21,757 nucleotides of DNA from Deinococcales bacterium. GTDB lineage: Bacteria; Deinococcota; Deinococci; Deinococcales; JAAFIG01. Of this stretch, positions 1 to 21,415 are shown in pieces. The stretch is from positions 1-21,757 of the forward strand of contig JAYWGM010000055.1 of the NCBI GenBank assembly GCA_043778225.1. The letters are read 5' to 3'. A model generated the notes under the pieces. That model had not been told where the DNA came from and made no database searches. It was given only the letters and a program-made list of their open reading frames with translations. Numbering within the stretch: position 1 is the first letter of the stretch; every line of letters begins with the position of its first letter. Made by a program: the position numbers and the translations under genes.

Positions 1-2
1 AA

Positions 3-854
3 AGATCGCTCGAAAGAGTTATTAGAAAAGAGGGTTTTCAATTGGAAGTGGAGTTCATTGAGTCTGTAGAAAAAGCCGTAGAGTTTCTAAAAGAAGACAG
101 CCGCGCAGCCCATGTAGATTTGATATTAATGGACTATAATCTTGGTCAAGGAAAAACGGGTGATGTTGGCTTAAAAGAAATTAGAGAATTCTTACCCTAT
201 AAAGAAATCATTTTTTATTCTGGGAACACCGATATAGGAGAAATTCTAAAAAATGCAGGAGTTCAAGGGGTTTATTCGACAAGTAGGAACGATATTCCTC
301 TAGTTGTAGCAGAAGTTTTTTTAGTATTAATTAAAAAAGTAATTGACATTGAACATTCTCGTGGAATTGCAATGGGCGCTACAAGCGATATTGATGGATT
401 GGTTAATGAATGTCTCGTTTTGGTTTTTAACAATGTAGATACGAAAATTAACACAGGCTACTTTCAACTAATTTTTGAACGTATAGCAGAAATAGAAGAA
501 GAGTTTCCGAGAAAAATTACAAAAGCAAAGCAAATTAGTTCAATTGATGATTTGTTTAAGCATCATTTCGTATACACAAGCAATGATAGGATCAGATTAT
601 TAAAAACAATTTTGAAAACCATAGAAGATTATATTTCTGTTGATGAATACATTAAGAATTACATTGATGAAATAGTTCCGCTAAGGAATGACCTGGCGCA
701 CGTAAATGTGAAGATTGATGGTTTTTCGAGAAAGATATTTACAAGAGAAGGGGTAGAACTCACGCCAGAAGTTATGAGGAAATTAAGAATTGATCTTCTA
801 GAATTTCGAGAACTGATGGAAAAATTAAAATCTAACCTTACACCAAGTAGTTAA
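3..854 (+). CDS. Response-regulator receiver (REC) domain protein with helical HEPN-like C-terminal domain; 5'-partial
   Basis: Frame is open from position 3 (RSLERVIRKEGFQLEVEF), so the true start lies outside the window. REC motifs DLILMDYNLG (phospho-acceptor Asp) and IIFYSG. C-terminal RGIAMGATSDIDGLV helix and RNDLAH (RxxxxH, nt 684-701). Confidence 0.75.
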   Translation, partial: RSLERVIRKEGFQLEVEFIESVEKAVEFLKEDSRAAHVDLILMDYNLGQGKTGDVGLKEIREFLPYKEIIFYSGNTDIGEILKNAGVQGVYSTSRNDIPLVVAEVFLVLIKKVIDIEHSRGIAMGATSDIDGLVNECLVLVFNNVDTKINTGYFQLIFERIAEIEEEFPRKITKAKQISSIDDLFKHHFVYTSNDRIRLLKTILKTIEDYISVDEYIKNYIDEIVPLRNDLAHVNVKIDGFSRKIFTREGVELTPEVMRKLRIDLLEFRELMEKLKSNLTPSS

Positions 855-2100
855 ATAGACTCAAGCCTATAGCTTCAGCAATGAGCGGTGGCACAGCATT
901 AGCAACTTGAGTAAACCTAGGAACTTCAAATTTTCTTCGATCCCCACCAGTTGTGTATTGACCTTTGAATTCAAACCAATCTGGAAAACCCTGTAATCTT
1001 GCATTTTCTCGGACTGTTAATGCTCGAGGTTCACAGTAGTGTATTAAGTCATCAGGCATACTTGTGATGGTTGGTGATGGACTATTTGGGTCAAGCACTC
1101 TAATAGAAGACTTTTTGAGTCCAAGTCCTGCCTTTATTTCTTTAGAAAGACTCATGTTAAGTCGCCCCATCTGTACTGATAAAGCAATCATTTTTTGAAA
1201 ACGCTCCACTGTACTTGGTTTATGTTTTGCCAACCGAGTATCTGAAACTAAGTTACCCATCCCTAAATTCATTATTTTTTGATACTCACTTAATGGTTGG
1301 GTATATTTTAATTCTTGAAACCCTTTTGTATCCCGAGATGGAACACTTCCATTTAATTTGACCTCAAGGTCTGATATAGCCTCTTTAATAGTTACAGGGA
1401 TACCATTTATTCCTTTATTCAACAAGAAAGCGGCGCGGTTATTTTCAATAGCAACAAATGGTTCAAGTTGTATTTTTAGGTTTACGCCTTTACGAAATGC
1501 AATGAGAAAAAACCTGTGGCGTTTTTGAGGAACACCAAAAGTGGATGTGTCGAGAATCTCTGAGTGTACAGTATAGTTTTTTGAGAGCGATTCGATTAAC
1601 CACTTTGCATAATTTATCTTTGTGTCTTCATCGGAAAAATCTGAAGTAATTCCTTTTACATTTTCAATCAATACGATTTTGGGTTGAATGATTTCCACAA
1701 ACTTGAGATAGATTTTGATCAATTGATTCCGTGGGTCATTTGGGTCACGACGACCTGCTGGAGAAAATCCTTGACAGGGTGGTCCACCAACCAATAAATC
1801 CACTTGACCCCTAAGAGAGATAAGATTGTCATGATTATTTTCCATAATATCTTCCACAGAATGGTTACTTTTAGAAAGCCAATCACACCAGTCGAATTTA
1901 GGTTTTCCTAGAGAATCAATTAAATTGTGTCTAAGTGTTTGAAAAGCATCTGAGTTGCGCTCTATCGCAAATAAACCTTGCCAACCTGCTTGAAGGAGTC
2001 CAAGGCTTAAACCGCCACAACCAGCAAAAATATCAATGAACGTCGGTTTTTTACTTACCAAAACTGACTGCTCACTTTTTTGCTCGGGTAGTTTTTTCAT
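838..2100 (-). CDS. DNA (cytosine-5)-methyltransferase
   Basis: Canonical C5-MTase motifs in order: FAGCGG (I), GGPPCQGFS (IV), ENV (VI), QKRHRFF (VIII), RALTVRENARLQGFPD (IX), QVANAVPP (X). Overlaps the convergent REC gene by 17 bp. Confidence 0.95.
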   Translation of the reverse strand: MKKLPEQKSEQSVLVSKKPTFIDIFAGCGGLSLGLLQAGWQGLFAIERNSDAFQTLRHNLIDSLGKPKFDWCDWLSKSNHSVEDIMENNHDNLISLRGQVDLLVGGPPCQGFSPAGRRDPNDPRNQLIKIYLKFVEIIQPKIVLIENVKGITSDFSDEDTKINYAKWLIESLSKNYTVHSEILDTSTFGVPQKRHRFFLIAFRKGVNLKIQLEPFVAIENNRAAFLLNKGINGIPVTIKEAISDLEVKLNGSVPSRDTKGFQELKYTQPLSEYQKIMNLGMGNLVSDTRLAKHKPSTVERFQKMIALSVQMGRLNMSLSKEIKAGLGLKKSSIRVLDPNSPSPTITSMPDDLIHYCEPRALTVRENARLQGFPDWFEFKGQYTTGGDRRKFEVPRFTQVANAVPPLIAEAIGLSLFNYLV

Positions 2101-2373
2101 AATTTTCCCATGTTCAGAATATAACTAATTTTTGTTAAAAAAGCCAGGATTAGGTCGGCTATACTCGAGTCCAAATAAATCCAGAAATCTATTTATGAAA
2201 CCTTAGCCCTCGAGTTATTCGTTATTGCCCGCACAATTAACTTTATAACTTCTCGGTTCAGCCAGTTCCGACCCAACACTGACACCACAAATGCGAAATG
2301 GGTTAAGCCCTGTGCGAGTGCTGCATGGTTATATCGAGGATGCCGAATCTCGAGACTGTGCGTTGCTGCTCGA

Positions 2374-3081
2374 GTGGCGAAACCCAACACGCCTCGAGAC
2401 AAAAGCCAAATAAAAACAGGTAAACTGCTTTTTGTGCAAGGTTTAATTATCGCTATTGTGGCAATTTGGGTCGGACTCGACCAAGCCCTCAAATTTTGGA
2501 CAATCGCCAATGTTCCTTTTGGAACGGTTGCCGAATATCAGCCATTCCCAGCTTTTATGTCGCTGGCTCATGTGCGAAACACGGGTGCAGCTTGGAGTTT
2601 ATTCTCGAGTGCTACACCATTTTTGGTGGTGGTGCGGTTGGTGGTTGGGGCAGCCATTCTGGTTTGGTTACTGCGAAAGCCACGCCCTAAACTCGAGTCG
2701 GTGGCTTTTAGTTTTATTGTCGCAGGGGCTTGGGGCAATGCCATAGATGGGCTTCAATACGGCTATGTGGTGGATATGCTGCAAAATCATTGGCTGACGG
2801 CTGTTTACCGAATTATCCAACCCAACCAGATTTTCCCCATTTTTAACCTAGCCGACACGGGCGTGGTTGGTGGAGTGCTGTTGTTGGTGGCGTTAAGTTT
2901 TCTGCCTAAAAAACTTGAGCCAATTGTTGCAACAGAAGCTCAAAACAGTCACCTCGAGAATGCCGAATCGCACAGTCACCTCGAGAATGGCGAAGCGCAA
3001 GGACTTGAGTCAGAATCATCTCAGGTCAAACCCGAATTGACCGTGCCAACACCACTCGAGCCAGTCAAGCATGAGTCTTAG
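2374..3081 (+). CDS. lspA: Lipoprotein signal peptidase II with low-complexity C-terminal extension (start uncertain)
   Basis: Motifs LDQALKFW, NTGAAWS, GAWGNAID, VVDML and IFNLAD, with several hydrophobic segments. Confidence 0.9.
   Translation: MAKPNTPRDKSQIKTGKLLFVQGLIIAIVAIWVGLDQALKFWTIANVPFGTVAEYQPFPAFMSLAHVRNTGAAWSLFSSATPFLVVVRLVVGAAILVWLLRKPRPKLESVAFSFIVAGAWGNAIDGLQYGYVVDMLQNHWLTAVYRIIQPNQIFPIFNLADTGVVGGVLLLVALSFLPKKLEPIVATEAQNSHLENAESHSHLENGEAQGLESESSQVKPELTVPTPLEPVKHES
2945..2989 (+). repeat. In-frame 27-bp tandem duplication in the lspA tail
   Basis: ACAGTCACCTCGAGAATG at 2945 and 2972, encoding NSHLENAES / HSHLENGEA. Confidence 0.85.
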
Positions 3082-3144
3082 ATGACACTTGTTGCATAAA
3101 ATTTTGCACATCGTTGCGCTTTTTCTTGGTGTACAGTCAGAGGC

Positions 3145-5652
3145 ATGAAGTATTTTCCAGTTTTGATTTCCTTGGCAGCCCTCGCCGCTTGTGGCAGCAG
3201 TATTCCAGTTGGGTCGGGCGGACTCGAGAAGTGGTCTGACCCGAAAACTTGGGGCGGGACTGTGCCTGTTGCGGGTGCAAACCTGACCATCCCAGCCGGT
3301 AAACAAGTGCTGCTCGATACATCGGTTAGCCTCGGGGCGCTTGAAATCGCTGGCGAATTGCGTTTTGACAATGCTGACCTCGAGTTACGCGCCAAAAGCA
3401 TCATGGTGCATGGTGGAAAACTACAAATTGGCTCGAGTCTTGCGCCGTTTTCTAAACGCGCTACAATTACTCTGGTTGGTCAGGACACAGGCGGCGATGT
3501 CATGGGCATGGGCGAAAAAGTTTTGGGTGTGATGATGGGCGGTAGTTTAGAACTTTACGGTGCATCCCGAGGCAAGTCTTGGACACGCTTAAATGGTACG
3601 GCTGCGGTGGGTGCAAAAACCCTCAATCTCGAGGCTGGGGCGGGTTGGGCGGTCGGTGATAAAATTGCTCTTGCCAGCACCGATTACAGTCCAGACCAAG
3701 CCGAAGAAGTGGTGATTACCGCCGTAGCTGGCAATACAGTCACGATTGCACCCGCCTTAAAATACAGCCATTTTGGTGAAGCCCAGACCTTTGCTGGAAA
3801 AACCCTTGAGTCTCGAGCCGAAGTGGCGCTCTTAAATCGTAACATTGTCATTCGCGGCGATGAGACCAGCAACACCACAGGTTTTGGTGGTCATGTCATG
3901 GTCATGGACAGCAGCCTTGCCAAGCTCGAGAATGTTGAAATTACTAACATGGGTCAAAAAAATAAGCTCAAGCGCTACCCGATTCATTTTCATATGCAAA
4001 GTATCGGCAGCACTGGTTCGCTCATTAAAAATAGCGTCATTCACAATAATTTTAACCGTTGTGTCACGGTTCATGGCTCGGCTGGTATTCTGCTCGAGAA
4101 CAACGCGGCATACAACACCCTCGGGCATTGCTTTTTTCTCGAGGATGGCAGCGAGACGGGCAACACCTTGCGCGGCAATCTTGGTTTTAGCACCAAACGC
4201 CCCCCCGAAGGACAGCGCTTACTGCCGACCGACAGCGACCCGTCCACCTTTTGGATTACCAACCCCAACAATACCTTCGAGAACAATGTTGCGGCTGGCT
4301 CGGCAACTTTTGGTTTCTGGATTGCCCTGCCCGAAAAAGCCACCGGTCCAAGTGCTACCGATGCCCGTTTTGCGGGTACATTCCCAAGCCGCACCGCCTT
4401 GGGCGTTTTTAAGAACAACTTAGCCCACAGCAACGAAAACACAGGCTTAAATGTGGATGGTGGTCCGGATGTCACCACGCTCGAGCAACGCACCACGTAT
4501 TATGCGGCTCGAGCCAACCCATCTGACGAAAAAAGCGTGATTGTTCCGACTTTGTTTGAAGGTTTCCAAGCCTATAAAAACCGTAACCGTGGGGTCTGGT
4601 TGCGCGGCGAAAAACACACCCTCGAGAATGCGCTGATTGCCGATGGGGCAATTGGGGCAACTTTTGCCAGCCATGAAACTTTTGTGCAAAACAGCGTTTT
4701 TGTCGGTGAAACCGCCAATAAAGGCACACCATCTGATTACGAAAAAAACGGACGGGTCGGCTTAGATGGTCGGACGCTGCCATTTCCTTGGGAAGTCGCC
4801 TTTCCAATTCGTGGTTTTGAATTTTATGATGGCAAAGTTGGCGCTAAAAATGTCACCTTTGTTAATTACCAGCCCAACGCTCAACGCGGCGCAGGTGGCA
4901 CGTCGTATTTGCGCTTTACCGACTTTCATATTGACCCACGCAATGGCGCAGAAGGTCTGAGCTTCCAAAACGCCAACCAAGTCTGGCTCAAATTTGAAAA
5001 GCCCGAGCCAAGCGCCCCAACCGACGATGGCATGGATGGCTATCGCAGCGCCGTGTTTATGGACAAAGATGGCAGTCTCACGGGAACGGCTGACCGCAGC
5101 GTGGTGGTCAATAATCCGTTTTTACTGAATGCCAACTGCACTGCCAAAACTGAATGGAGCGCCAACATCTGCAACAATCCGTATGCACGTTTCCAATTCG
5201 AGAATGTTTCTGGCAACAATGCCGAAATTAGCCCTGTCAGCATCAAGCGGCTCGAGGACAACAACCCAACCCATAAAATGTGGGGAACACCTTCGGACAA
5301 TGCCAACCGCCATTTTGAAACCCGTCTGATTGCCCAAAAGAATTACGATATTAGCCCTGCTGGGGCTTTGCCGCCTCGAGTCCGCCTGCATTTTCGCAAC
5401 CGCAATGTTGGCGACTGGATACGAATTACCCTGCCATGGATGGGTTCAGCCCCGCGCATCTACCGCGATTGGTGGGTGGACAACCGCAATGACCTCGAGC
5501 CAGTGGCGCTTAGCGAACTTGAAGCCTCGAGTGGCGATAAGTACGCACTTGAAGGCGGTAAGCTGTACTTAAAGATGCAAATCAAAGCCGAAGCCAGTTA
5601 TGTCAAGGATTGGGCGGTCTTGGATGTCTGTCAGGCTGACCTTTGTAAATAA
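3145..5652 (+). CDS. G8-domain lipoprotein with parallel beta-helix repeats (CEMIP/TMEM2-like)
   Basis: Signal peptide with lipobox LAAC. G8-like N-terminus (WSDPKTWGGTVP...GGSLELYG). Motifs RAEVALLNRNIVIRG, RYPIHFH, CVTVHGS, GHCFFLEDG and STFWITNPNN, typical of the CEMIP/TMEM2/fibrocystin group. Confidence 0.8.
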   Translation: MKYFPVLISLAALAACGSSIPVGSGGLEKWSDPKTWGGTVPVAGANLTIPAGKQVLLDTSVSLGALEIAGELRFDNADLELRAKSIMVHGGKLQIGSSLAPFSKRATITLVGQDTGGDVMGMGEKVLGVMMGGSLELYGASRGKSWTRLNGTAAVGAKTLNLEAGAGWAVGDKIALASTDYSPDQAEEVVITAVAGNTVTIAPALKYSHFGEAQTFAGKTLESRAEVALLNRNIVIRGDETSNTTGFGGHVMVMDSSLAKLENVEITNMGQKNKLKRYPIHFHMQSIGSTGSLIKNSVIHNNFNRCVTVHGSAGILLENNAAYNTLGHCFFLEDGSETGNTLRGNLGFSTKRPPEGQRLLPTDSDPSTFWITNPNNTFENNVAAGSATFGFWIALPEKATGPSATDARFAGTFPSRTALGVFKNNLAHSNENTGLNVDGGPDVTTLEQRTTYYAARANPSDEKSVIVPTLFEGFQAYKNRNRGVWLRGEKHTLENALIADGAIGATFASHETFVQNSVFVGETANKGTPSDYEKNGRVGLDGRTLPFPWEVAFPIRGFEFYDGKVGAKNVTFVNYQPNAQRGAGGTSYLRFTDFHIDPRNGAEGLSFQNANQVWLKFEKPEPSAPTDDGMDGYRSAVFMDKDGSLTGTADRSVVVNNPFLLNANCTAKTEWSANICNNPYARFQFENVSGNNAEISPVSIKRLEDNNPTHKMWGTPSDNANRHFETRLIAQKNYDISPAGALPPRVRLHFRNRNVGDWIRITLPWMGSAPRIYRDWWVDNRNDLEPVALSELEASSGDKYALEGGKLYLKMQIKAEASYVKDWAVLDVCQADLCK

Positions 5653-5681
5653 TCCCTAGAAATTGCTGTACGATACCAGCC

Positions 5682-6308
5682 ATGCCACGTACCTTAGACA
5701 AAATTCGCCAAGCAAGCGTCGAGGAGTATTTGCGTTTTGAGGAGACTGCTTTAGAACGCCATGAATTTGTGGATGGCAGTATTTTTATGATGGCTGGCGG
5801 AACTGTACAACACGCTCAAATTGCTTTGCGTTTAGCCGCTAAACTCTTAGCAAGCACAGAAAATACCGAATGCGAAGTGGTAACTTCAGATGTGAAATTG
5901 CAAATTGGCAATGTTTATTATTACCCTGACATCATGGTCTCTTGCCAAGAAAACAAAGCCGAACGACGATTTTTTCAAAATCCTTGCAGCATTATCGAAG
6001 TGCTTTCGAGCAGCACAGAACCCGTAGACCGAGGCGAAAAGTTACTGCGCTATCGCACTATTGCTACTTTACAAACGTATATTTTACTGGCACAAGACGC
6101 GATTCGAGCCGAAGTCTATAGGCGTTTACCCGATAACACTTGGCGTTATGAAGTGCTAGAAAAAAACGATACCCTCGAGATACCATGCGCTCATTTTAAG
6201 CAATTACTGAATTCTATTTACAAAGGTGTATTAAGCAACCGAGCCGATTTTGAAGCAGCACTTGCCAGCGCACCAGATGTCCAGCCAGACCCTGACGACC
6301 AAATGTAA
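5682..6308 (+). CDS. Uma2 (DUF820) family PD-(D/E)XK endonuclease
   Basis: Motifs RHEFVDG, MAGGTVQH, YYYPDIMVSC, PCSIIEVLSSST, DRGEK..RY and YILLAQD. Confidence 0.9.
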   Translation: MPRTLDKIRQASVEEYLRFEETALERHEFVDGSIFMMAGGTVQHAQIALRLAAKLLASTENTECEVVTSDVKLQIGNVYYYPDIMVSCQENKAERRFFQNPCSIIEVLSSSTEPVDRGEKLLRYRTIATLQTYILLAQDAIRAEVYRRLPDNTWRYEVLEKNDTLEIPCAHFKQLLNSIYKGVLSNRADFEAALASAPDVQPDPDDQM

Positions 6309-6310
6309 AC

Positions 6311-6501
6311 GAGCAACCAAGTATCGTATGGGACTCGAGCAACCAAGTATCGTATGGGACTCGAGCAACCAAGTATCGTATGGGACTTGAGCAACCAAGT
6401 ATCGTATGGGACTCGAGTAACCAGGCATTGTATGGGACTTGAGACACCAAGCATCGTATGGGACTCGAGACGTTGACTGATGTGGGACTCGAGACTCCCA
6501 C
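6311..6501 (+). repeat. Tandem array of 26-bp units (6 full copies plus 1 degenerate), ending in a small palindrome
   Basis: Unit GAGCAACCAAGTATCGTATGGGACT(C/T) starting at 6311, 6337, 6363, 6389, 6415 and 6441, with a degenerate copy at 6467. Ends GTGGGA-CTCGAGAC-TCCCAC (6482-6501). Confidence 0.95.
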
Positions 6502-6508
6502 CCATCTG

Positions 6509-6587
6509 TGCTATGCTGCCCTTCGGGTGCGAAATTCTCGCGCCATTTTATTGTGCTTGCGAGCGAATCAAATCGCCGCTTTTTTTT
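6509..6587 (+). promoter_or_regulatory. Putative typA extended -10 promoter and structured leader with a terminator-like hairpin
   Basis: TG-C-TATGCT at 6509-6517. Stem GCGAGCGA/TCGCCGC at 6559-6579 followed by T8 (6580-6587), then RBS GAGGT. Confidence 0.4.
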
Positions 6588-6596
6588 GAGGTTGTC

Positions 6597-8384
6597 ATGC
6601 AGGAATTTCGTAATATCGCCATTATTGCCCACGTAGACCACGGTAAAACAACCTTGGTGGATGGGCTACTTAAACAAACGCACACTTTCCGCGATAACCA
6701 GCTGGTTGCCGACCGCGTGATGGACTCCAATGCCCTCGAGCGAGAGCGCGGTATTACCATTTTGGCAAAAAATACCGCCGTTGAGTACCACGGCATTAAA
6801 ATCAATATCATGGATACGCCCGGTCACGCCGATTTCGGTGGCGAAGTCGAACGTGTGCTTGGCATGGTGGATGGCTGCTTATTGTTGGTGGATGCTTCTG
6901 AAGGTCCGATGCCACAAACCCGTTTTGTCCTCAAAAAAGCCCTCGAGCTTGGACTGCACCCAATTGTCGTGATTAACAAAATAGACCGCAAAGACCAGCG
7001 CATCACCGAAGTTGTTAATTTGACCTTCGATTTGATGGCAAGTTTGGATGCCACCGACGAACAACTCGATTTCCCGATTATCTATGCGATTGCTCGAGAG
7101 GGCAAAGCCTTCAAAGATTTGGAGCAACCCAAGGAAGACCTCGACGAATTGCTCGAGTTAATTGTCAAGCACGTTCCACCACCCGCCATCGAAATTGATA
7201 AGCCGTTTCAGATGCTGGTCACCAACCTCGATTATTCCGATTACCTTGGGCGTATCGCCATTGGGCGGGTGCGGCGCGGTAAGGTCAAGCGCAACGAATA
7301 CGTGATGGTGATGCACAAAGACGGCACGCAATCGAAAGCCAAAGTGTCCCAAGTCTTTACCCACATGGGTCTAAATCGCATTGATGTTGAACAGGTTTTT
7401 GCTGGAGATGTCGTGGCGATTGCTGGACTCGAGGATGTTGGTGTTGGCGAAACCGTCGCCGATTTTGCTGACCCCGAAGCCTTGCCAATTTTAACCGTCG
7501 ATGAGCCAACCGTTTCGATGACCTTTGGTCCAAACACCAGCCCATTTGCTGGTAGAGAAGGCAAGTACGTCACCACCCGTCATATCCGTGACCGCTTATT
7601 CAAAGAAGCCATGACCAATGTGGCACTGCGCGTTGAAGAGGACAGCACCGACGAGTACAAAGTCTCTGGGCGTGGCGAGTTGCACCTGAGCATTTTAATC
7701 GAAACCATGCGCCGTGAAGGTTACGAAATGCAGGTCTCCACACCACAAGTGATTACTCGAGAAATTGATGGCAAAGTTCACGAACCTTACGAGCATTTGG
7801 TGATTGATGTGCCAGAAGGCAAAATGGGCGGCGTGATGGAAACCCTAGGCAGTCGTCGCGGCGAAATGCTGAATATGGACAACCAAAACGGACGGATGCG
7901 GCTCGAGTACAAAATTCCAGCCAGAAGCCTGTTTGGTTTCCGCACCCAGTTTTTAAGCATGACCCAAGGCGAAGGCATCATGAACCACGTCTTTGATGGT
8001 TATGCCCCAATGGCTGGCGAAATCAAGACCCGTCAGAATGGGTCTTTGGTCGCCATGGAAGCCGGACAGACCTTTCCATACGCGATTTGGAAACTCGAGG
8101 ATCGCGGTAAGTTCTTTATCGAACCGGGTATCGAAGTCTATATTGGTATGATTGTTGGTTCTAACAGCAGCGCCAAGGATTTGAACGTCAATGTCTGTAA
8201 ATCTAAAAAGCTGACCAATATGCGAACCAGTGGCGCGGACGATGCCACGACCCTGACCCCAGTTTCACCAATGAGTCTCGAGGAAGCCCTTGAGTACATT
8301 GCTGATGACGAATTGGTCGAGGTCACACCAAAAAGCATTCGTTTGCGTAAACGGGTACTCGAGCCAAACCAACGCAAAATCTAA
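6597..8384 (+). CDS. typA: Translational GTPase TypA/BipA
   Basis: [64 protein letters not shown] and [19 protein letters not shown] at 6597 follows GAGGT. Confidence 0.97.
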
Positions 8385-8392
8385 GTTCAAAA

Positions 8393-8414
8393 AGGCGAGC
8401 CAATTGGCTCGCCT
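8393..8414. terminator. Perfect 22-bp palindrome after typA (terminator or REP-like element)
   Basis: AGGCGAGCCAATTGGCTCGCCT equals its own reverse complement. The A-run precedes it, so the U-tract falls on the minus strand. Confidence 0.55.
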
Positions 8415-8463
8415 ATGGCTCGAGTACCCAAAAAGATTTTTTTTAGGTACTCTGGTAGGTATC

Positions 8464-9219
8464 ATGACCAAGACCATAGACCTCAATGCCGATGCTGGAG
8501 AATCTTATGGCACTTGGCAACTTGGCGCGGATGCGGCGCTTTTCCCATACTTAACCAGTGTCAATCTGGCTTGTGGTTTCCACGCTGGCGACCCAAGTAC
8601 CATCCTGCGTAGCCTCGAGTTGGCTGCCAAACACCAGCTTGCGGTTGGGGCGCACCCAAGTTTTCCAGATCTGGTTGGTTTTGGGCGGCGCGAAATGACC
8701 CTCGAGCCAGACCAGATTTATAGCGATGTGCTGTACCAAATTGCGGCTTTAGGTGGCATGGCAAATACCCAAGGCTTGCAGTTGCACCATGTCAAAGCCC
8801 ATGGCGCACTCTACAACCAAGCGGCTCGAGCAATAACCACGGCTCGAGCCATTGCCAAAGCGGTACGGGATTTTGGTTCTGGTGTGCCTTTGGTCGGTTT
8901 GCCTAACTCAAAACTCGAGCAGGCTGCTCTAGAATTTGGCTTACCATTTATTGCCGAAGCCTTTCCAGAACGTGGCTACCTTGAAACTGGTGAACTTGCG
9001 CCGCGCAGTCTGCTTGGCTCGAGTATTCACGACCCTGATGTGGCAGCCACAAGGGCAGTCCAGATGGTGCTTGGGCAAATCCAGACCCTCGAAGGCACAA
9101 GGCTGGCGCAGCAAGCCCAAACGCTGTGTATTCATGGCGATAACCCTAATGCGGTACAGATTGCCAAGGCTGTTCGGGCGGCGCTCGAGGTGGCTGGTAT
9201 CGAGCTTAGGGCGTACTGA
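8464..9219 (+). CDS. pxpA: 5-oxoprolinase subunit A (LamB/YcsF family)
   Basis: IDLNADAGESYG, NLACGFHAGDP, GAHPSFPDLVGFGRR, HVKAHGALYN and TLCIHGDNP. ATG at 8464. Confidence 0.93.
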   Translation: MTKTIDLNADAGESYGTWQLGADAALFPYLTSVNLACGFHAGDPSTILRSLELAAKHQLAVGAHPSFPDLVGFGRREMTLEPDQIYSDVLYQIAALGGMANTQGLQLHHVKAHGALYNQAARAITTARAIAKAVRDFGSGVPLVGLPNSKLEQAALEFGLPFIAEAFPERGYLETGELAPRSLLGSSIHDPDVAATRAVQMVLGQIQTLEGTRLAQQAQTLCIHGDNPNAVQIAKAVRAALEVAGIELRAY

Positions 9220-10721
9220 TGCGTTTAGGGTTTTACCTTCCTTTTGCCAAAAAGCCCGATGTTATAGCTTCGGCTCGAGCCTTAAATGCCCTCAAAGCCA
9301 TGCGCCAAAATCTGCTCTCAGGAGTGACCGAAATAATTCCCAGCTACCTCAATATTTATTTTGAATTCGAGGCTCGAGTGACTACAAAAAAAGTGGTACA
9401 GGCTTGGGCAAATTCTTATCTGTCGCGGAATTGGCAACAGCCAACCCAGCCCCAAACCGTCGAAATTCCAGTTGAGTACAACGGTATAGACCTTGACTTT
9501 ATTGCCGAAAAAACAGGCTTAACGATTGCCGAAGTTATTCGGTTGCACGCGAGCCAGATGTATCATACTTTTGCAGTCGGTTTTACGCCGGGTTTCCCAT
9601 TTTTAGGGGTGCTGCCAGAAGCGCTCCATTTGCCACGGCGTGCCACACCCAGAGCCAAAGTCCAAGCCCACTCGGTAGCAATGGCGCTTGGGCAGACTGG
9701 GGTTTATCCATTCTCGAGTCCGGGTGGCTGGCATATTCTGGGTACGGCTGGCGTAGCCATGTTTGACCCACACCGTGACCGACCTTTTTGGGTCGAAGCT
9801 GGCGATTCGGTGCGTTTTGTGCCAACCCAAAGCGCACAAATCCCTAAACTCGAGCCAGTTCGGTTATTGCCACTCGAGCCACGTTTTCCAGTCTTAAAAC
9901 TCGAGCAGGCTGGTTTACAAACCCTGCTGCTCGATGCTGGGCGCAGCCATGTCGGGCATTTTGGTTTGGCACAGTCTGGGGTGCTGGATTCACGCAGTGC
10001 TGCCCTTGCCAATGCCGTGGTTGGCAATACCGCCAGCACACCATTGCTCGAGCTAACCCTGACGGGTGGTGTGTTTACGGCATTGACCGATGTCGTGCTG
10101 GGCTTTGCGGGTTATGGCATGAACCCGATACTGGGTGGCGAAGCAATAGCGGCTGCCTCGAGTTTTTTGTTGCGCCGTGGGCAAACGCTGCGATTTGCGC
10201 CAAGCCAAATCGGGGTACGTGCTTACCTCAGTGTGGCTGGTGGCTTTGAGGCACAACCAATCTGGGGCAGCGTCAGTTCGGATGCTCGGGCTGGGTTGGG
10301 TCGAGCTTTACAAGCTGGTGATGTGCTTGGGTCGGCTTTTCCTCGAGCCACAAGGGCTGGGTTTTACTTATCACAGCCCAAACTCGAGCCTCGGGCTTTA
10401 CGTTTACTCGAGGGAGCGCAACCAAACCCAGAGGCGCTCGCCAGACTGTGCGAGCAGCCATTTGTGCTTGAACGGGCTGACCGTATGGGCGCAAGGTTAT
10501 CTGGGGCAGCCGTGGCTGGTGGGGAGGTCTCGAGTGAAGCCACTGCCTTTGGTGCGCTGCAAATCACGCCGAGTGGTCAGCCGATTATTCTGCTGCACGA
10601 CCGTGGGCGAATGGGTGGCTATAGCAAACCTGCCCTGCTTCATCCCAGCGATGTATGGCGTTTGGCACAATTGCGCGATGGACAATTACTGCATTTCTCG
10701 AGATTTTTGAACTCGGTCTAA
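9219..10721 (+). CDS. pxpBC: Fused 5-oxoprolinase subunits B and C (KipI-KipA / allophanate hydrolase subunits 1+2)
   Basis: GFTPGFPFLG, PRRATPR and TGVYPFSSPGGWHILG (PxpB); ALANAVVGN, GVRAYLSVAGG, DRMGARL and GGYSK (PxpC). TGATG overlap with pxpA. Confidence 0.9.
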   Translation: MRLGFYLPFAKKPDVIASARALNALKAMRQNLLSGVTEIIPSYLNIYFEFEARVTTKKVVQAWANSYLSRNWQQPTQPQTVEIPVEYNGIDLDFIAEKTGLTIAEVIRLHASQMYHTFAVGFTPGFPFLGVLPEALHLPRRATPRAKVQAHSVAMALGQTGVYPFSSPGGWHILGTAGVAMFDPHRDRPFWVEAGDSVRFVPTQSAQIPKLEPVRLLPLEPRFPVLKLEQAGLQTLLLDAGRSHVGHFGLAQSGVLDSRSAALANAVVGNTASTPLLELTLTGGVFTALTDVVLGFAGYGMNPILGGEAIAAASSFLLRRGQTLRFAPSQIGVRAYLSVAGGFEAQPIWGSVSSDARAGLGRALQAGDVLGSAFPRATRAGFYLSQPKLEPRALRLLEGAQPNPEALARLCEQPFVLERADRMGARLSGAAVAGGEVSSEATAFGALQITPSGQPIILLHDRGRMGGYSKPALLHPSDVWRLAQLRDGQLLHFSRFLNSV

Positions 10722-10826
10722 TTTTTATTTCCCAAACTGACCCCAAAACCTTGTAGAATCTCGAGCATTCCCCAAAGTATCTTGCAGTTTCTAGCTCGAG
10801 ATACGCTTTGCCTAATAGGAGGCACA

Positions 10827-11288
10827 ATGGATCCCAAAGACCTCAAACGAATTTTAGATGCCCTCAAAGATGCCGATGTTTCCGAATTTAACCTCGAGAC
10901 CCCGGAGTACAAAGTTCATGTCAAACGCGGCGACCAAATTATCCATATGGCTGCTCCAAGCCCAATGGTGCTGGCTGCCCCCGCTCCAGTCCAAGTGGCG
11001 GCGGCGCTACCCGCTCCAAGCACGACCGAAACCGCTCCAGTCGAAAAAATAAATGGTCATCAGGTCAAAGCCCCGATTGTGGGTACATTTTACCGCTCGA
11101 GTAGCCCAGATGCGGCTGTGTTTGTCCAACTTGGCGATAAAGTCGAATCCGGACAAGTGTTGTGCATTATCGAAGCGATGAAACTGATGAATGAAATCGA
11201 ATCGGATAAAGCTGGCACAGTGCGCGAAATTCTTGTTTCCAATGCCCAGCCAGTCGAATATGGACAGGCTTTATTTGTGATTGAGTAG
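10827..11288 (+). CDS. accB: Biotin carboxyl carrier protein
   Basis: Ala/Pro linker, APIVGTFYRSSSP and the biotinylation motif EAMKLMNEI. RBS AGGAGG at 10817-10822. Confidence 0.95.
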   Translation: MDPKDLKRILDALKDADVSEFNLETPEYKVHVKRGDQIIHMAAPSPMVLAAPAPVQVAAALPAPSTTETAPVEKINGHQVKAPIVGTFYRSSSPDAAVFVQLGDKVESGQVLCIIEAMKLMNEIESDKAGTVREILVSNAQPVEYGQALFVIE

Positions 11289-11316
11289 CAGGGCGACCAC
11301 AAGGGTCGCGCCCTAC
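11288..11316 (-). repeat. REP-like palindrome between accB and accC
   Basis: Minus strand reads GTAGGGCGCGACC-CTTGT-GGTCGCCCTGC: a GTAG tetranucleotide followed by an imperfect GC-rich hairpin. Confidence 0.6.
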
Positions 11317-11369
11317 AAGGTCAAAAAGATGATTTTTGTGGGAGGGGTTTATCTGAGCTCGAGGTTGCT

Positions 11370-12707
11370 ATGTTCAAAAAAATTTTAATTGCTAACCGTG
11401 GCGAAATTGCGCTGCGGGTGATTCGCACTGCCAAAGAAATGGGTATTAAAACCGTGCTGGTCTACTCCGAAGCCGATGTTGGCAGTTTGCCGGTGCTGCT
11501 TGCCGACGAAACCGTCTGTGTTGGACCGCCCGCCTCGAGTGGCTCGTACCTCAATATCCCCAATGTGCTGTCGGCAGCCGTCATGACTGGCGCAGAGGCG
11601 ATTCATCCGGGCTACGGGTTTTTATCCGAAAATCCAGATTTTGCCGAAAAATGCCGCGACCACGGGATTGTCTTTATCGGACCAACCCCAGAATCAATGC
11701 ACGCTTTGGGTTCTAAAGCTGGTGGGCGCGAAATTGCACGGCTTTCCAATGTGCCAGTTGTGCCGGGTTCTGGCTTACTCGAGTCCACCGAAGATGCGAT
11801 TGTGCAAGCCGAAAAAATTGGTTATCCGGTCTTACTCAAAGCCAGTGCTGGCGGCGGTGGGCGCGGGCAGAAAATCGTGCGCTCGAGCGAAGAAATGCAG
11901 TCGAGCTTTAACCAAGCTGCCCAAGAAGCGCTCTCGTATTTTAGCGACCCAGCCTTGATTATGGAAAAACTGATTATGGAATTTCGCCATGTCGAAGTTC
12001 AGGTCATGGGCGATGGAAGTGGTCATGTGATTCACATCGGCGAACGCGATTGCAGCATCCAGCGCCGCAACCAAAAACTGATTGAAGAAGCCCCAAGTAC
12101 CCTACCCGCCGATCTGCGCGACGAAATTCTGGCGGCTGGGGTGCGCCTTGCTAAGCACGTCAATTATAGCGGCGCGGGGACTTTAGAATTTATTGTTGAC
12201 CCAGAAAATAATTTTTATTTTATGGAAATGAACACCCGAATCCAAGTCGAGCATTGTGTTTCTGAAAGTATCTCGAGGCTTGATTTTGTGCGTTTACAAA
12301 TTGAGATTGCGGCGGGTATGGGTTTAACGCTACAGCAATCAGACATTCGACTCGAGGGTCATGCGATTGAATGCCGCATTAACGCCGAAGACCCCGATAA
12401 GGATTTTCGCCCTGCGGCTGGTAAACTCGAGAGCGTCCATTTTGCAGGTGGAGTTGGGGTGCGAATAGACAGCCATGCTTTTAGTGGTTACACCATTCCG
12501 CCACATTACGACAGTTTAATCGGCAAGCTGATTTGTTGGGCACCAACTCGAGACATGGCAATTGCCAGAACCAAACGGGCATTGGATGAAACTGTGATTC
12601 AGGGTGTCAAAACCACAATTCCGTTGTATGTCAAAATCATGCAGAATGCTTTTTATCAGCGCGGTGTGGTGCTGACCAATTTCTTAAAAACCCGTATGGA
12701 GATGTAG
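11370..12707 (+). CDS. accC: Biotin carboxylase
   Basis: MFKKILIANRGEIALRVIR, IHPGYGFLSEN, KASAGGGGRG, ERDCSIQRRNQK and EMNTRIQVEH. Confidence 0.96.
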   Translation: MFKKILIANRGEIALRVIRTAKEMGIKTVLVYSEADVGSLPVLLADETVCVGPPASSGSYLNIPNVLSAAVMTGAEAIHPGYGFLSENPDFAEKCRDHGIVFIGPTPESMHALGSKAGGREIARLSNVPVVPGSGLLESTEDAIVQAEKIGYPVLLKASAGGGGRGQKIVRSSEEMQSSFNQAAQEALSYFSDPALIMEKLIMEFRHVEVQVMGDGSGHVIHIGERDCSIQRRNQKLIEEAPSTLPADLRDEILAAGVRLAKHVNYSGAGTLEFIVDPENNFYFMEMNTRIQVEHCVSESISRLDFVRLQIEIAAGMGLTLQQSDIRLEGHAIECRINAEDPDKDFRPAAGKLESVHFAGGVGVRIDSHAFSGYTIPPHYDSLIGKLICWAPTRDMAIARTKRALDETVIQGVKTTIPLYVKIMQNAFYQRGVVLTNFLKTRMEM

Positions 12708-13856
12708 TTCGGCTTGTAAAATGTCTTGCACTGTCTCACGTCGGCGCAAGACCACCCAAGCATCGTCCTCGAGTAGCACTTCGGCAGGGCGAGGGCGGGT
12801 CAGGTAATTGCTTGCCATGCTCGAGCCATATGCGCCAGCTTGGCTGATGCAAATCAGGTCGCCGACCTCTGGCTCGGCAATTTTGACATCGCGCCCCAAA
12901 ATATCGCCAGATTCGCAAGCTGCTCCTGCAATATCAAGCGTTACGGTGGCTCGAGTGGCGCTCAGGTTTTCGATTGGATGCACTGCGCCGTACAACATTG
13001 GGCGCAATAACTCGGACATTCCAGAATCCACCACCGCAAAAGTTCGAGCAGTTTTTTTCTTCTCGAGAACGGTGGTCAATAGCACCCCACTTTCGGACAC
13101 CAGCCAACGTCCGGGTTCAATCCAGAGTTCAGACGCGCCAAAAGCATCAGCAGCTTGGTGTCCAAGTTTGGCTAATGGCTCGAGGTCAAAGCCTAAACCA
13201 AAGCCGCCGCCCATATCAAAAACTTGCCTCGAGCCAATCTGTTTGGCAAGCCCCGCCATCCGCTCGAGTGCCAGCAGATAATCGTTTGGGTCTTCGATGC
13301 TGCTGCCGATGTGCATTTGTAGCCCAACCACTTCTAAACCAGCTTTTTCGGCGTTCTGTACGGCTACAGGCACATCCTCGAGACTGACCCCAAACTTGCT
13401 GCTGGCGTTGCCCGTCGCCAAATGGTCGTGGGTCGAAACCTTTAAGCCCGGATTGACCCGAATCAGCACTTGGGCGTTGGGCGCGTACTTGGCGGCTCGG
13501 GTGGCTTCATCGGTATTGTCGAGAATGATGTATGCTCCGACTTCTTTGGCTTTTGTATAATCAGCATTGAGTTTGCCGGGTCCGTTCATGACCATTTGCC
13601 TACCCGTCGCCCCAGCTAAAATTGCCCGCTCGAGTTCGCCGCCAGACACGGCTTCAAAGCCCACGCCCAGCGCGTTTAGGCGTTTGAGAATCCCAAGGTT
13701 GGGGTTGGCTTTGATTGCATAAAAAATTTTGGCTGAACCAAATGCCACTTTTAGCCGCTCGAGTTGTGTCTGAATGACTTGCCAATCGTAAGCATAGAGT
13801 GGTGTGCCATAAGTTTGGGCTGCCTCGAGTAACAAAGTTTTGAAAGCTGAACGCAT
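12684..13856 (-). CDS. lysA: Diaminopimelate decarboxylase (fold type III PLP decarboxylase)
   Basis: YGTPLYAYD, YAIKANPN (PLP lysine), SKFG, HIGS, EPGR, ACESGD and GAYGSSMASNY. Overlaps the accC 3' end by 24 bp. Confidence 0.85.
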   Translation of the reverse strand: MRSAFKTLLLEAAQTYGTPLYAYDWQVIQTQLERLKVAFGSAKIFYAIKANPNLGILKRLNALGVGFEAVSGGELERAILAGATGRQMVMNGPGKLNADYTKAKEVGAYIILDNTDEATRAAKYAPNAQVLIRVNPGLKVSTHDHLATGNASSKFGVSLEDVPVAVQNAEKAGLEVVGLQMHIGSSIEDPNDYLLALERMAGLAKQIGSRQVFDMGGGFGLGFDLEPLAKLGHQAADAFGASELWIEPGRWLVSESGVLLTTVLEKKKTARTFAVVDSGMSELLRPMLYGAVHPIENLSATRATVTLDIAGAACESGDILGRDVKIAEPEVGDLICISQAGAYGSSMASNYLTRPRPAEVLLEDDAWVVLRRRETVQDILQAELHLHTGF

Positions 13857-13862
13857 GGCTCG

Positions 13863-13870
13863 AGTATACT
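13863..13870. promoter_or_regulatory. Palindromic bidirectional -10 element for leaderless lysA and ALDH transcripts
   Basis: AGTATACT reads TATACT on both strands, each exactly 6 nt before an ATG (13877 on +, 13856 on -). Confidence 0.7.
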
Positions 13871-13876
13871 GCTACG

Positions 13877-15340
13877 ATGCAAAGTAAACTTTTTATTGGC
13901 GGTTCGTGGGTCGCAGCGACTGGCGGCACACTCGAGGTCGTCAACCCCAGCAACGAAGAAATTCTGAGTTATGCACCCAATGCCAGCCCCGCCGACGTAG
14001 ATACAGCCGTAGAAGCGGCTCGAGTGGCTTTTAAGACTTGGAAGCGCACCACAGGCGCAGAACGAGCCGTATTTTTAAGTGCCATTGCCCAAGGGGTGCG
14101 AAATCGCAAAGAAGCACTGGCGCGACTCGAGACCCAACAAAACGGTAAGCCTCTGCCCGAAGCGCTGTGGGACATGGATGATGTGGCGGCTTGTTTTGAC
14201 TACTACGCCCAACTTGCTATAGACCTTGACTCGAGGCTCGAGACCGAAATTATTTTGCCAAATCCAGACTTTAGCAGTTTGGCACGGCTCGAGCCAGTCG
14301 GGGTGGTCGGGCAGATTATTCCGTGGAATTACCCACTTTTAATGCTGGCGTGGAAAGTTGCCCCAGCATTATCAGCAGGCTGTTGCAGTGTGCTTAAACC
14401 ATCCGAACTGACCCCTTTTACCGCCCTCGAGCTTGGGGAAATTGCACTCGAGGCTGGGTTGCCATCTGGAGTGCTGAACATTGTGAGTGGTGGGCGCGAA
14501 ACAGGCGCAGCCCTAGCCGACCATCAGGGTATAGATAAACTGGCATTTACAGGCAGTGTCGCCACTGGGCGCAAGGTCATGCAGGCAGCGACCACAGGCA
14601 TCAAAAACATCACGCTCGAGTTGGGTGGCAAATCGCCAATACTGGTTTTTAACGACAGCGATTTAGACCAAGCCATTGAGTGGATTCTGTTTGGGATTTT
14701 TTGGAATAAAGGCGAGGTTTGTAGCGCCACCAGTCGGTTGTTGGTGCAGTCCGAAATTGCGCCGGCTTTATGGAGTCGCCTCAAGCTCGAGTGCGAAAAA
14801 ATAACCATCGGCGACCCGCTCGAGGCTGGAGTCTTGCTTGGACCACTGGTCTCGAGTGGACAATACCAAAAAGTGCTTTCGTTCCTCGAAGTCGCCAAAG
14901 CCGAAGGATTAACATTGCTGACTGGCGGCAAGCGCCCAAGCCATTTAGCCAAAGGGTTTTATCTCGAGCCAACCGTTTTTACCGATGTCCCAAGCAGCAG
15001 CCGCCTCTGGACAGAAGAAATTTTTGGACCGGTGCTGGTTGCCCAGACCTTCACCACCGAAGCCCAAGCCCTCGAGTTGGCAAATTCTAGCAACTTTGGT
15101 TTGGCAGCAGCTGTACTCTCCAAAGATTTAACCCGTTGCCAACGGGTGGCTCGAGAACTCGAGGCGGGTATTGTCTGGATTAATTGCTCGCAACCGACTT
15201 TTTGTGAAGCCCCATGGGGTGGCTATAAACAGAGCGGTATTGGGCGCGAACTTGGGCATTGGGGTTTAGACAATTACCTCGAGACCAAGCAAATTACCAG
15301 TTACAACACCGATAAGCCATGGGGTTGGTACATTAAATAG
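13877..15340 (+). CDS. Aldehyde dehydrogenase, betaine/aminoaldehyde dehydrogenase (ALDH10-like)
   Basis: [32 protein letters not shown], catalytic [16 protein letters not shown] and C-terminal PWGWY. Confidence 0.88.
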
Positions 15341-16196
15341 CTCGTGCCTCAAATCTTTTTGAGGGCAGTACAAATTCATCTTGGGCAGCAATCAACTGAA
15401 TTTCTCGAGTGCCAAGCTGGTGTGTCAGTTCGAGCAAGTTATAGAGCGCACTGGCGGCATTCTCGAGTGCCAGTTTTAGACTGCCCGTCTTTAAGTAATG
15501 CCCTAAAAACAGAGCCGCAATACAATCGCCAGTGCCATTGCGCGGTGGGTCAAGTAAAATTTTAGGTGTCTCGAGCAACCACGCGCCCTCACTCGAGACC
15601 GCCAAGACTTCGATGCTGTCTTGGCGTAGCTCGAGGCTTGTGACCAGCACCAGACCATTTGGGCGCATCTTGGAGCGCAACGCCAGAGTCGCATTCAGTG
15701 CATCCTCAAGGGTCTGAATCTGCAAGCCAGTCAAAAGCTCGAGTTCAAATTGATTGGGGGTCAATATATCGGCTTGTGGCACAACATTTTGGCGGATAAG
15801 GTCTGGCAATTCTGGGCGCACAAAAATGCCACGCCCGACATCGCCCATGACTGGATCGCAACAAAAAAGCGCCTTGGGGTTGGCGGCGCGTACCTTTGCG
15901 ACTGCCTCGAGAATCGCTTGAGCCGTGTCTGGTGCGCCCATATAGCCAGACAGCACCGCCGTACATTCGGGCAGCACGCCTCGGTCTTCGATGCCTTGAA
16001 TCAGGGCTTTGGTCTGTTCGGCTGGAAAAACTTGCCCAGTCCACGCGCCATACCCAGTGTGGTTACTAAATTGCACGGTATGGACTGCCCAGACTTCAAA
16101 ACCAAGGCGCTGCAACGGGAAAACAGCCGCCGCGTTGCCTGCATGACCGTAGCTCACCCAGCTTTGAATCGAGAGGATATTTTGTGGTTTTTGCAT
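15333..16196 (-). CDS. pdxY: Pyridoxal kinase
   Basis: [52 protein letters not shown] and NGTGD. Confidence 0.93.
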
Positions 16197-16199
16197 GAC

Positions 16200-16673
16200 C
16201 TAAGCCACCATCGGTTTACTGGTTTTGCCACTCAGGCTTCTGAACCTCGAGACCGCATTGACATCCTCGGCTAACTCGAGCATATCGAGGTAAATATCAT
16301 CGGCATAGTATGCCAGTGCGGTTAATCCTTCGGCAAAAACCTCATAACGCAGTGCCGACATCGGTAATTCGACGGTCAGAGTTACATCCTCGTCTTCGTC
16401 GAGGACAAATTTGGCTAAGTTCATTTCACGGTTAAAGTGCAGCATCGCTTCCATGGTATGGACTCGGGTTTTCTCGAGTTCTGGGGCGGGTACAAACGGC
16501 GAGATGGTCATGTAGAGCCATGCTTCGGTTAAGCGCATATAAATTGTAAAAAAACCATTTTCACCCTTAAAGCCAGTCCGCCAGACACCATCGCCAATGG
16601 TTTCAAAGCTCCAACCGTATTCTCCAAAAAACTTTTCAACTGTTTGCGGTTTGACCTCGGTCACATTTTGCAT
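16200..16673 (-). CDS. YbjN-domain protein (type III secretion chaperone-like fold)
   Basis: 157 aa and acidic. The pattern MLHFNREMNLAKFVLDEDEDVTLTVELP resembles the YbjN family. Ends 3 bp before pdxY. Confidence 0.65.
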   Translation of the reverse strand: MQNVTEVKPQTVEKFFGEYGWSFETIGDGVWRTGFKGENGFFTIYMRLTEAWLYMTISPFVPAPELEKTRVHTMEAMLHFNREMNLAKFVLDEDEDVTLTVELPMSALRYEVFAEGLTALAYYADDIYLDMLELAEDVNAVSRFRSLSGKTSKPMVA

Positions 16674-16696
16674 TCTACCCCTTTATGGTGAAATAA

Positions 16697-16741
16697 CTTT
16701 TGACCTTTTGACCTTTTGACCTTTTGACTTTTTGACCTTTT
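16697..16741. repeat. Intergenic octamer tandem repeat (C/T)TTTTGAC x5
   Basis: CTTTTGAC x4, TTTTTGAC, then partial CTTTT, starting at the aminotransferase stop codon. Confidence 0.95.
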
Positions 16742-17814: not shown

Positions 17815-17874
17815 AACCAGATTCTACCAAGAGAGTTGGACAACATAAAAGTAACTCGAGTAGACTGGTCACTT

Positions 17875-18858: not shown

Positions 18859-18869
18859 TAAAATCTTTT

Positions 18870-19244
18870 ATGCCTAAAAAAGACATACCAAAAGACCCGA
18901 TTCGAGAACAACGAATTGATTATGAAATCGTGGTGGATGCCTACGACGAAATCGAACGGTCAATGGGCTGGTACTATTATCTTGATGAGAAACTGGTCTA
19001 TCCATTCTCGGCAAAATGTATCCTCGAGCGTCTTACCTCGCCTTTAGGAATTGGTGAACAAGTCAAAGTGCTTGGAATGCCAAGCGAAGAAGATTGCCAA
19101 GACGAGATGCTGGTTTTGGTCAAGTACAAAACAAAGAAATTAGCTGTTCCACTGGCGCAACTCGAGTGTTTATCCGAAGATGAAGATACCTTAGAAGCCG
19201 TAGCGGACTGGCATTATTGGGTTGGACGTGGTTACCAGTTTTAA
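18870..19244 (+). CDS. CcbP-family calcium-binding protein
   Basis: Acidic 124-aa protein with RIDYEIVVDAYD.E..MGWYYYL, PF.AKC, LAVPLAQL and AVADWHYWV, characteristic of the family. ATG at 18870. Confidence 0.75.
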   Translation: MPKKDIPKDPIREQRIDYEIVVDAYDEIERSMGWYYYLDEKLVYPFSAKCILERLTSPLGIGEQVKVLGMPSEEDCQDEMLVLVKYKTKKLAVPLAQLECLSEDEDTLEAVADWHYWVGRGYQF

Positions 19245-20224: not shown

Positions 20225-20246
20225 ATGACTACAGTATGCCCGAAAA

Positions 20247-20281: not shown

Positions 20282-20300
20282 CTGTTCGGAGGTAACACCC

Positions 20301-20780: not shown

Positions 20781-20788
20781 ACCTATTT

Positions 20789-21396: not shown

Positions 21397-21415
21397 GATT
21401 TTATTCTGCCACAGA

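Follow-up and report, generated by a model that had tools for sequence, protein, structure and literature searches.

What does a two-component receiver do when it is joined to a helical domain with a ribonuclease-like motif, and when its gene converges on a gene for a cytosine methyltransferase? The question is raised by the left end of a 21,757-nt stretch (hereafter the window) of contig JAYWGM010000055.1 from a Deinococcales bacterium (assembly GCA_043778225.1). The original prediction read this gene pair as a defence module, in which a kinase or ATPase encoded beyond the window senses infection or unmethylated DNA and switches on an abortive HEPN ribonuclease (RNase), while a C5 cytosine methyltransferase (MTase) marks self DNA. 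We found that three genes travel together in related genomes, and that the kinase, receiver (REC), output and methylase motifs are kept. By its sequences, the cassette appears best filed with the predicted paraMORC-kinase/receiver/C5-MTase systems, with a HEPN RNase as its probable output.

The receiver gene and its methyltransferase neighbor

The features of the locus are as follows (aa, amino acids).

3..854, + strand: REC plus HEPN-like protein, residues 22-304 of 304 aa; start codon upstream of the window
3..344, + strand: receiver (REC) domain, residues 1-135; S94 kept, acidic pair D11/D12 just outside the window
132..134, + strand: phospho-acceptor Asp65, in DLILMD, invariant in 137/137 homologs
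345..851, + strand: helical output domain, HEPN-like; five helices with the motif ending the fifth, a beta-hairpin and a last helix
360..395, + strand: RGIAMGATSDID helix; R141 and G142 invariant, D/E152 acidic in 137/137 homologs
684..701, + strand: RNDLAH, candidate Rx4H RNase site (R249, N250, H254)
838..2100, - strand: C5 cytosine DNA methyltransferase, 420 aa, convergent; FxGxG/PCQ/ENV/QxRxR motifs intact
1..2100, no strand: right end of a low-GC, CTCGAG-poor island, from GC and CTCGAG counts

The open reading frame (ORF) at 3-854(+) has 283 codons and is open at the 5' edge of the window. Database protein P0003 (304 aa) is 100% identical across all 283 residues, which places 21 N-terminal residues outside the window; P0003 numbering is used for the protein throughout. 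As the original prediction had it, a receiver with an intact phospho-acceptor, the Asp codon at 132-134, is followed by RNDLAH at 684-701. The overlap with a convergent C5-MTase in an AT-rich island was likewise confirmed: the 3' ends of the two genes share 17 nt, and GC is 0.34-0.37 across positions 1-2000 vs 0.46-0.56 from 2001 on. CTCGAG occurs once in 1-2100 vs 152 times in 2101-21757 (19,657 nt), a scarcity with a Poisson p of 1.5e-6 at the host rate and of 0.007 when corrected for GC. Low GC and CTCGAG scarcity together indicate that the two window genes are the right end of a foreign island. Judging from relatives, a gene for a GHKL-histidine kinase of about 790 aa is expected immediately upstream of the window. 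An Rfam search gave no match, and promoter and terminator scans stayed at or below chance.

CTCGAG is a highly iterated palindrome of the host genome: the 152 copies in 2101-21757 compare with 4.9 expected by base composition (31-fold), and at least eight other 6-bp palindromes are missing from the same region.

A mobile three-gene cassette in relatives

A single scan of GTDB genomes, run with REC-based seeds and leaning to the nearer clade, yielded 61 loci from many phyla, whose ORFs of at least 70 aa were clustered. The core consists of a gene of about 790 aa (61/61 loci), REC-HEPN (60, the remaining one cut by a contig end) and the C5-MTase (58). The predicted upstream GHKL/histidine kinase is thus present in every related locus, the window's own copy lying beyond the sequence, and the predicted linkage to a methylase holds in 58 of 61. 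The kinase gene lies directly upstream of the REC gene and overlaps it by 4 nt in 52/60 loci. Placement of the MTase gene varies: in 46 loci it is convergent and adjacent, in 8 it lies upstream in the same direction, 2 have one gene in between, 2 have it about 3 kb away, and 3 lack it, two of these at contig ends.

Beyond these three families, the largest gene cluster reaches only 8 of the 61 loci, so that no restriction enzyme encoded by an ORF of at least 70 aa is conserved. The scan of neighbors took in about one ORF on each side. Vsr was found in 7/61 loci, HNH genes in 4, and SacI- and Eco29kI-type enzymes in one locus each, beside a second MTase. An ordinary type II restriction-modification (R-M) system was rejected, there being no conserved endonuclease beside the intact C5-MTase. 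The other nearest neighbors are Tn7, integrase, resolvase, relaxase, transposase or housekeeping genes.

In 43/45 loci the module has a lower GC than its flanks. Tree distances for the 49 complete loci, compared without control for host phylogeny, correlate at 0.93 for kinase and REC-HEPN, 0.78 for kinase and MTase and 0.75 for REC-HEPN and MTase (Mantel p 0.001), which points to shared descent of the cassette. The three-gene cassette looks mobile.

Several individual loci bear on this mobility. The cassette adjoins Tn7-like transposition genes, upstream in L028 and L031 and downstream in L003, which suggests that it is Tn7 cargo there. At L053:7617-9818 a DDE transposase separates the kinase from a truncated REC-HEPN; most of the receiver is lost and the MTase is intact. 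In three divergent loci a PNKP-type HAD phosphatase gene directly follows REC-HEPN (L056:10917-11381, L057:5897-6337 and L061:10929-11375); the enzyme could return the phospho-Asp to its ground state or repair RNA ends. In L060 that position is taken by a SLOG-family gene.

The receiver is conserved across a large family

A word-based search gave 65 homologs, 63 of which were built into a profile that matched 1331 representatives at E<=0.001 (1050 at 1e-10, 351 at 1e-30), the weaker matches possibly aligning by REC alone. From the best 150 of the 1331 came 120 new matches of 285-350 aa, which together with 17 of the 65 word-search homologs make up an alignment of 137 sequences.

Pfam Response_reg matches the window receiver with E 3.2e-7 (30.9 bits vs a cutoff of 30.2) and is found in 107/137 homologs. 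The predicted model of the whole protein has a pLDDT of 85.9, and its receiver matches that of PorX with Z 16.1 and an rmsd of 2.0 over 120 aligned residues. In the model and the alignment, the domain thus appears as a (beta/alpha)5 receiver with the acidic pair, the phospho-Asp and the Ser/Thr in place: D/E11 is kept in 137 of the 137 sequences, D12 in 126, D65 in 137 and S/T94 in 136.

Mean column identity across the alignment is 26%, and only D65, R141, G142, R249 and H254 are invariant. Position 250 is Asn in 133 sequences, Asp in 3 and Thr in 1. The RNxxAH-type motif is thus fully conserved at its Arg and His, and with R249 and H254 kept in 137/137 at so low a mean identity, we ruled out RNDLAH as a chance motif. 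All 26 further proteins drawn in by a C-terminal profile carry R[ND]xx[AG]H, and RNxxxH is present in 60/60 genome loci even though the scan patterns were taken from the REC part.

A tblastn search of plasmids and phages found no REC-HEPN relative. Searches for a stand-alone or otherwise fused output domain, which are weak negatives, gave only fragments at 90-338 aa and nothing at 568-2000 aa, and the C-terminal domain profile matched none of the 901 other ORFs of the loci.

The output domain is probably HEPN

HEPN domains are defined by Rx4-6H with a polar residue (N/D/H) after the Arg and an upstream acid, often as Ex3[KR] in helix 2 (Anantharaman 2013, PMC3710099). The domain studied here has a conserved Rx4H with a polar residue after the Arg, as is usual in the superfamily. 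Its isolated model is all-helical (pLDDT 91.8); in the 173 residues modelled, helix 98-123 ends on H123 and is followed by a hairpin and then by helix 145-169, so that the motif lies, as in HEPN proteins, at a helix end before a loop and the last helix. The acidic residue at 152 sits in the first helix, without Ex3[KR]. The motif, where it falls at the end of a helix, and the polar residue agree with the published definition (PMC3710099), and the upstream acid may do so; on balance we consider it likely that the output domain is HEPN. Csx1, whose HEPN structure is unlike all others, also has a beta-hairpin after the motif (PMC3710099).

Profile searches point the same way. The non-receiver Pfam families that match at least three of the 137 homologs are RiboL-PSP (8), MAE_28990 (5), Swt1 (4) and ApeA (3), all of them HEPN. 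With isolated domains, the best E-values were 1.3e-5 for RiboL-PSP and 3.9e-4 for Csm6-HEPN, and Csx1 was matched in 6/60. The window's own domain gave matches over the motif region to RiboL-PSP (0.047), ApeA (0.1), Cas13-ApeA (0.0037) and Csx1 (0.0046). In all, sub-cutoff matches extend across the RiboL-PSP, MAE_28990, Swt1, ApeA, LA2681, Csm6 and Csx1 models. When a 170-aa helical segment of 43 kinases was searched as a control, no HEPN family appeared among the 25 of 63 families listed, which include every recurring one.

Several results count against the assignment. All HEPN sequence matches lie under the curated cutoffs, and most members have none; PEP-utilisers_N, in 7/60 isolated domains, is more recurrent than any HEPN family; and a weak match to Alanine_zipper in 13/43 control segments tells us that chance recurrence occurs. 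With the C-terminal model, Foldseek found no HEPN structure in PDB or BFVD at E<=0.001, and the best VIA match had Z 7.2 and an rmsd of 4.1 over 74 aligned residues, a generic bundle that covers residues 82-172. The fold alignments of this model cover only residues 82-173 of 173, and the VIA match to Csx1-Crn2 concerns its CARF-HTH part, not the HEPN domain. The missing fold match might reflect a long insert of helical structure or swapping of the first helix. The claim of HEPN identity in the original prediction thus gained weak, consistent sequence matches and drew a blank in C-terminal fold searches.

Other approaches gave little more. In full-model fold searches the matches were filled by the REC domain, and the ESM Atlas returned only unnamed clusters (TM 0.69-0.82), probably the REC-HEPN family itself, with no usable named match. 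A PDB sequence-profile search with the domain alignment produced only spurious helical matches, and hhalign against one AbiJ-type protein gave a probability of 0.4%.

The absence of a matched HEPN structure and of a named ESM Atlas cluster, together with the empty PDB profile and hhalign results, would also be expected if the output domain were a DNA-acting nuclease, or a non-catalytic helical binder of nucleic acid or partners, and an MTase without an endonuclease leaves the role of a DNase vacant. We regard this explanation as improbable: it is opposed by R-N-x-x-[AG]-H, which is kept throughout where a helix ends and which, with an upstream acid, seems to fit the HEPN definition, by the beta-hairpin after the motif as in Csx1 (PMC3710099), and by the weak matches from seven different HEPN-type models.

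The upstream gene encodes a predicted paraMORC-type histidine kinase

Each of the five kinases scanned has HATPase_c_3 at its N-terminus and HATPase_c at its C-terminus. Across 43 aligned kinases, E35, N39, DxGxG, GxxGxG, H582, N696 and N700 are invariant, K362 is kept in 41, and the histidine kinase boxes (H, N, G1, F, G2) are conserved in 41-43. No transmembrane segment was found, no hydrophobic 19-mer scoring above 1.36. The kinase profile matches solved sensor kinases over 554-787, as well as Hsp90-family N-domains; the N-terminal part is closest to GHKL restriction enzymes of the BbrUII/HgiDII family, far under cutoff. The middle of the protein we take to be an S5 domain and a coiled coil, going by GHKL architecture and an alanine-rich consensus. 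On these sequence features, the protein is predicted to be soluble and to join a paraMORC-type GHKL ATPase to a histidine kinase.

Related kinases occur on plasmids with other partners. Plasmid P2 of Deinococcus gobiensis carries an Eco57I-type MTase, a paraMORC-kinase, a 215-aa REC-like protein and an HNH nuclease (L062:3544-8511), a DNase-output version of the kinase chassis. On Stenotrophomonas rhizophila plasmid CP031730 (L063:3745-10044), beside TnsA, a C5-MTase and a paraMORC-kinase are accompanied by an unannotated 212-aa REC and an unannotated 232-aa ORF. This last ORF has His-Gly and Ser-Cys motifs and no Pfam match at 1e-4; the motifs resemble those of caspase/CHAT proteases, and the locus may represent the chassis with a protease as its output. 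A more distant kinase on an Enterobacter plasmid is paired with a 357-aa REC protein. None of the outputs of these three plasmid kinases matches the REC-HEPN C-terminal profile. That distant kinases have other outputs indicates a chassis with exchangeable effectors.

These pairings bear on the idea that the cassette is a non-defence two-component system, which tunes the methylase or host expression to the nucleotide or DNA state. The study of a sister system suggested signaling that controls R-M and saw stress induction (PMC8011034), and the cassette has no match in defence libraries. We think such a regulatory role very unlikely. The protein has no DNA-binding output domain and its RNase-type motif is invariant; the cassette is patchy across distant phyla, in low-GC islands with Tn7, integrase, relaxase and resolvase neighbors; and related plasmid kinases pair with other outputs, including the HNH nuclease gene.

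The methyltransferase and a proposed mechanism

Pfam DNA_methylase matches 838-2100(-) with E 4.4e-55, and the catalytic Cys109 of the window MTase lies at nt 1774-1776. All or all but one of the 49 module MTases (48-49, by motif) retain the motifs. Members of the main clade share a conserved target-recognition region, from which L058 and L060 depart; an attempt to assign the MTase target yielded no site. The Vsr genes in 7/61 loci suggest an active 5-methylcytosine MTase.

A related clade of C5-MTases adjoins another three-gene cluster, with proteins of about 710-770 aa, 525 aa and up to 1843 aa, the last with a HerA-like domain (L011:11515-20889, L046:15184-20882, L051:14730-20282, L064 and L065). 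It occurs on plasmids without the kinase and is a candidate for a second system using this methylase family.

For the REC-HEPN cassette, we hold with even confidence that it is a phosphorelay-gated abortive RNase with an MTase that marks self DNA. The MTase would methylate a fixed short site on host DNA, as the conserved recognition region of the main clade suggests. The N-terminal GHKL+S5 clamp of the kinase would engage unmarked DNA, for instance that of an entering phage or plasmid, and its closure would be relayed through the coiled coil to the kinase, leading to autophosphorylation of His582. The phosphate would then pass from His582 to Asp65, and the phosphorylated receivers would bring two HEPN half-sites into register as an RNase acting on tRNA, rRNA or mRNA, with dormancy or abortive infection as the outcome. 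Such a system would resemble R-M in telling self from non-self, with a phosphorelay and a suicide RNase in place of the restriction enzyme.

Other observations sit uneasily with this proposal. The residue after His582 is Gln in 40/43 kinases, giving an LHHQ H-box, and is not acidic; in many histidine kinases an acidic residue after the His is reported to be needed for activity, with exceptions (bioRxiv 10.64898/2026.02.27.708494). Position 116 of the receiver is Arg in 134 of the 137 homologs and Lys in 3. Here Arg116 presumably occupies the position of the canonical receiver Lys, after beta5. Genes beside the cassette frequently belong to mobile elements or housekeeping functions instead of defence, the tree correlations may partly be read through the host phylogeny for which they were not controlled, and neither the REC protein nor the kinase is named by a PADLOC 2.0 or NCBIfam model above cutoff.

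The direction of phosphorylation could in fact be the reverse, with phosphorylation holding the RNase off rather than switching it on. The cassette would then follow a guard or addiction logic, in which the RNase is freed on inhibition of an MTase-kinase complex (for example by a phage DNA mimic), on a DNA break or on loss of the cassette. The same logic has been proposed for the R-M-linked HEPN RNases PrrC and RloC (PMC3710099); with no conserved restriction enzyme, the MTase may be bait; the translational coupling of kinase and REC-HEPN resembles antitoxin-toxin order; and the cassette is mobile. The conserved recognition region, the intact catalytic motifs and Vsr in 7/61 loci fit real methylation that is being read, and two ATP-binding modules would be superfluous in a pure addiction module. 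Both the guard logic and the reversed sign of phosphorylation seem to us rather unlikely, if worth keeping in view.

Relation to known systems

The closest described system, a computational prediction only, pairs HEF_HK, a kinase derived from paraMORCs, with Response_reg_2 (Bellieny-Rabelo et al. 2021, PMC8011034). Like the REC-HEPN cassette, it has a soluble kinase with HATPase_c_3, an H-box and HATPase_c, an adjacent receiver gene, a C5-MTase and an occasional Vsr (PMC8011034). The two differ in that none of the five REC-HEPN cassette kinases scanned matches PF19191 at E<=0.01, that His is followed by Glu/Asp in HEF_HK and by Gln (40/43) in the cassette kinase, and that the regulator has about 305 aa in the cassette vs about 600 aa in the Response_reg_2 system (PMC8011034). 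The portion of PMC8011034 at hand names no effector domain for HEF_HK, whereas REC-HEPN has an invariant Rx4H. Membership of PF19191/PF19192 was rejected: there was no PF19191 match (5/5), and Response_reg_2 matched weakly in 5/137 homologs, P0003 not among them, with a best E of 0.0022.

There is precedent for HEPN RNases as a back-up of R-M systems and for Ymh-HEPN joined directly to paraMORCs (PMC3710099). The paraMORC R-M systems (Iyer 2008, PMC2292703) share with the cassette a GHKL+S5 ATPase beside a cytosine methylase, and in the paraMORC-Ymh fusions of R-M neighborhoods (PMC3710099) a GHKL protein controls a HEPN RNase, as we propose here. In contrast to paraMORC R-M, the cassette has no conserved helicase or restriction endonuclease, and its HEPN-like domain is on a separate protein that would be reached by a His-Asp phosphorelay. 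The HEPN family table of PMC3710099 holds no receiver-HEPN fusion, its fuller supplement possibly bearing on the point, and the accessible text of PMC2292703 mentions neither receiver nor HEPN. PrrC and RloC are, like our proposal, NTPase-regulated HEPN RNases that back up R-M loci; they differ in having a cis-fused ABC-ATPase, in guarding type I R-M or sensing DNA damage, and in lacking a phosphorelay (PMC3710099). VcSduA (Shedu/paraMORC3; PMC12137116) and Tiamat (bioRxiv 10.64898/2026.09.30.754977) are proteins with experimentally shown anti-phage activity, in which a GHKL ATPase controls a nuclease. These are single polypeptides with PD-(D/E)xK DNases and without kinase or receiver, and VcSduA is non-abortive.

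Csx1 and Csm6 (CARF-HEPN) share with REC-HEPN a Rossmann-like sensor N-terminal to a HEPN or HEPN-like domain. Both are activated by cyclic oligoadenylate and found in CRISPR loci, whereas the sensor of REC-HEPN is a phospho-acceptor receiver. Csx1 and the REC-HEPN model also have in common the beta-hairpin after the motif, and there are weak PADLOC matches between them.

We found no description of a receiver-HEPN protein with a GHKL kinase and a methylase in the full texts searched, a coverage that takes in few subscription papers. The available portions of PMC12137116, the Tiamat preprint, PMC8195603, PMC12839542, the HisKA preprint and PMC11229360 do not describe the system.

Other features of the window

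A degenerate 26-nt tandem repeat of about seven units, without spacers, lies at 6285-6500, flanked by a 208-aa ORF and by the gene of a translational GTPase that we take to be TypA-like. At 16689-16752, 8-nt CTTTTGAC units stand in tandem in an intergenic region.

Implications

The boldest reading of the data, held tentatively and a little short of even confidence, is that a classical His-Asp phosphorelay directly triggers an immune effector: a MORC-like clamp would read methylation, causing His autophosphorylation and activation of the HEPN RNase, and REC-HEPN would be one output of a swappable-effector paraMORC-kinase chassis (>1000 50%-identity clusters). If this is true, the orphan paraMORC-kinase/receiver/methylase loci predicted in 2021 would gain a concrete effector and a testable mechanism, and two-component signaling would serve as the on-switch of an abortive RNase instead of acting on transcription. 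The cassette would represent a new wiring of anti-phage defence, and, being small and made of three genes, would lend itself to studies of the signal that bacterial MORC-type ATPases sense, a question that bears on eukaryotic MORCs.

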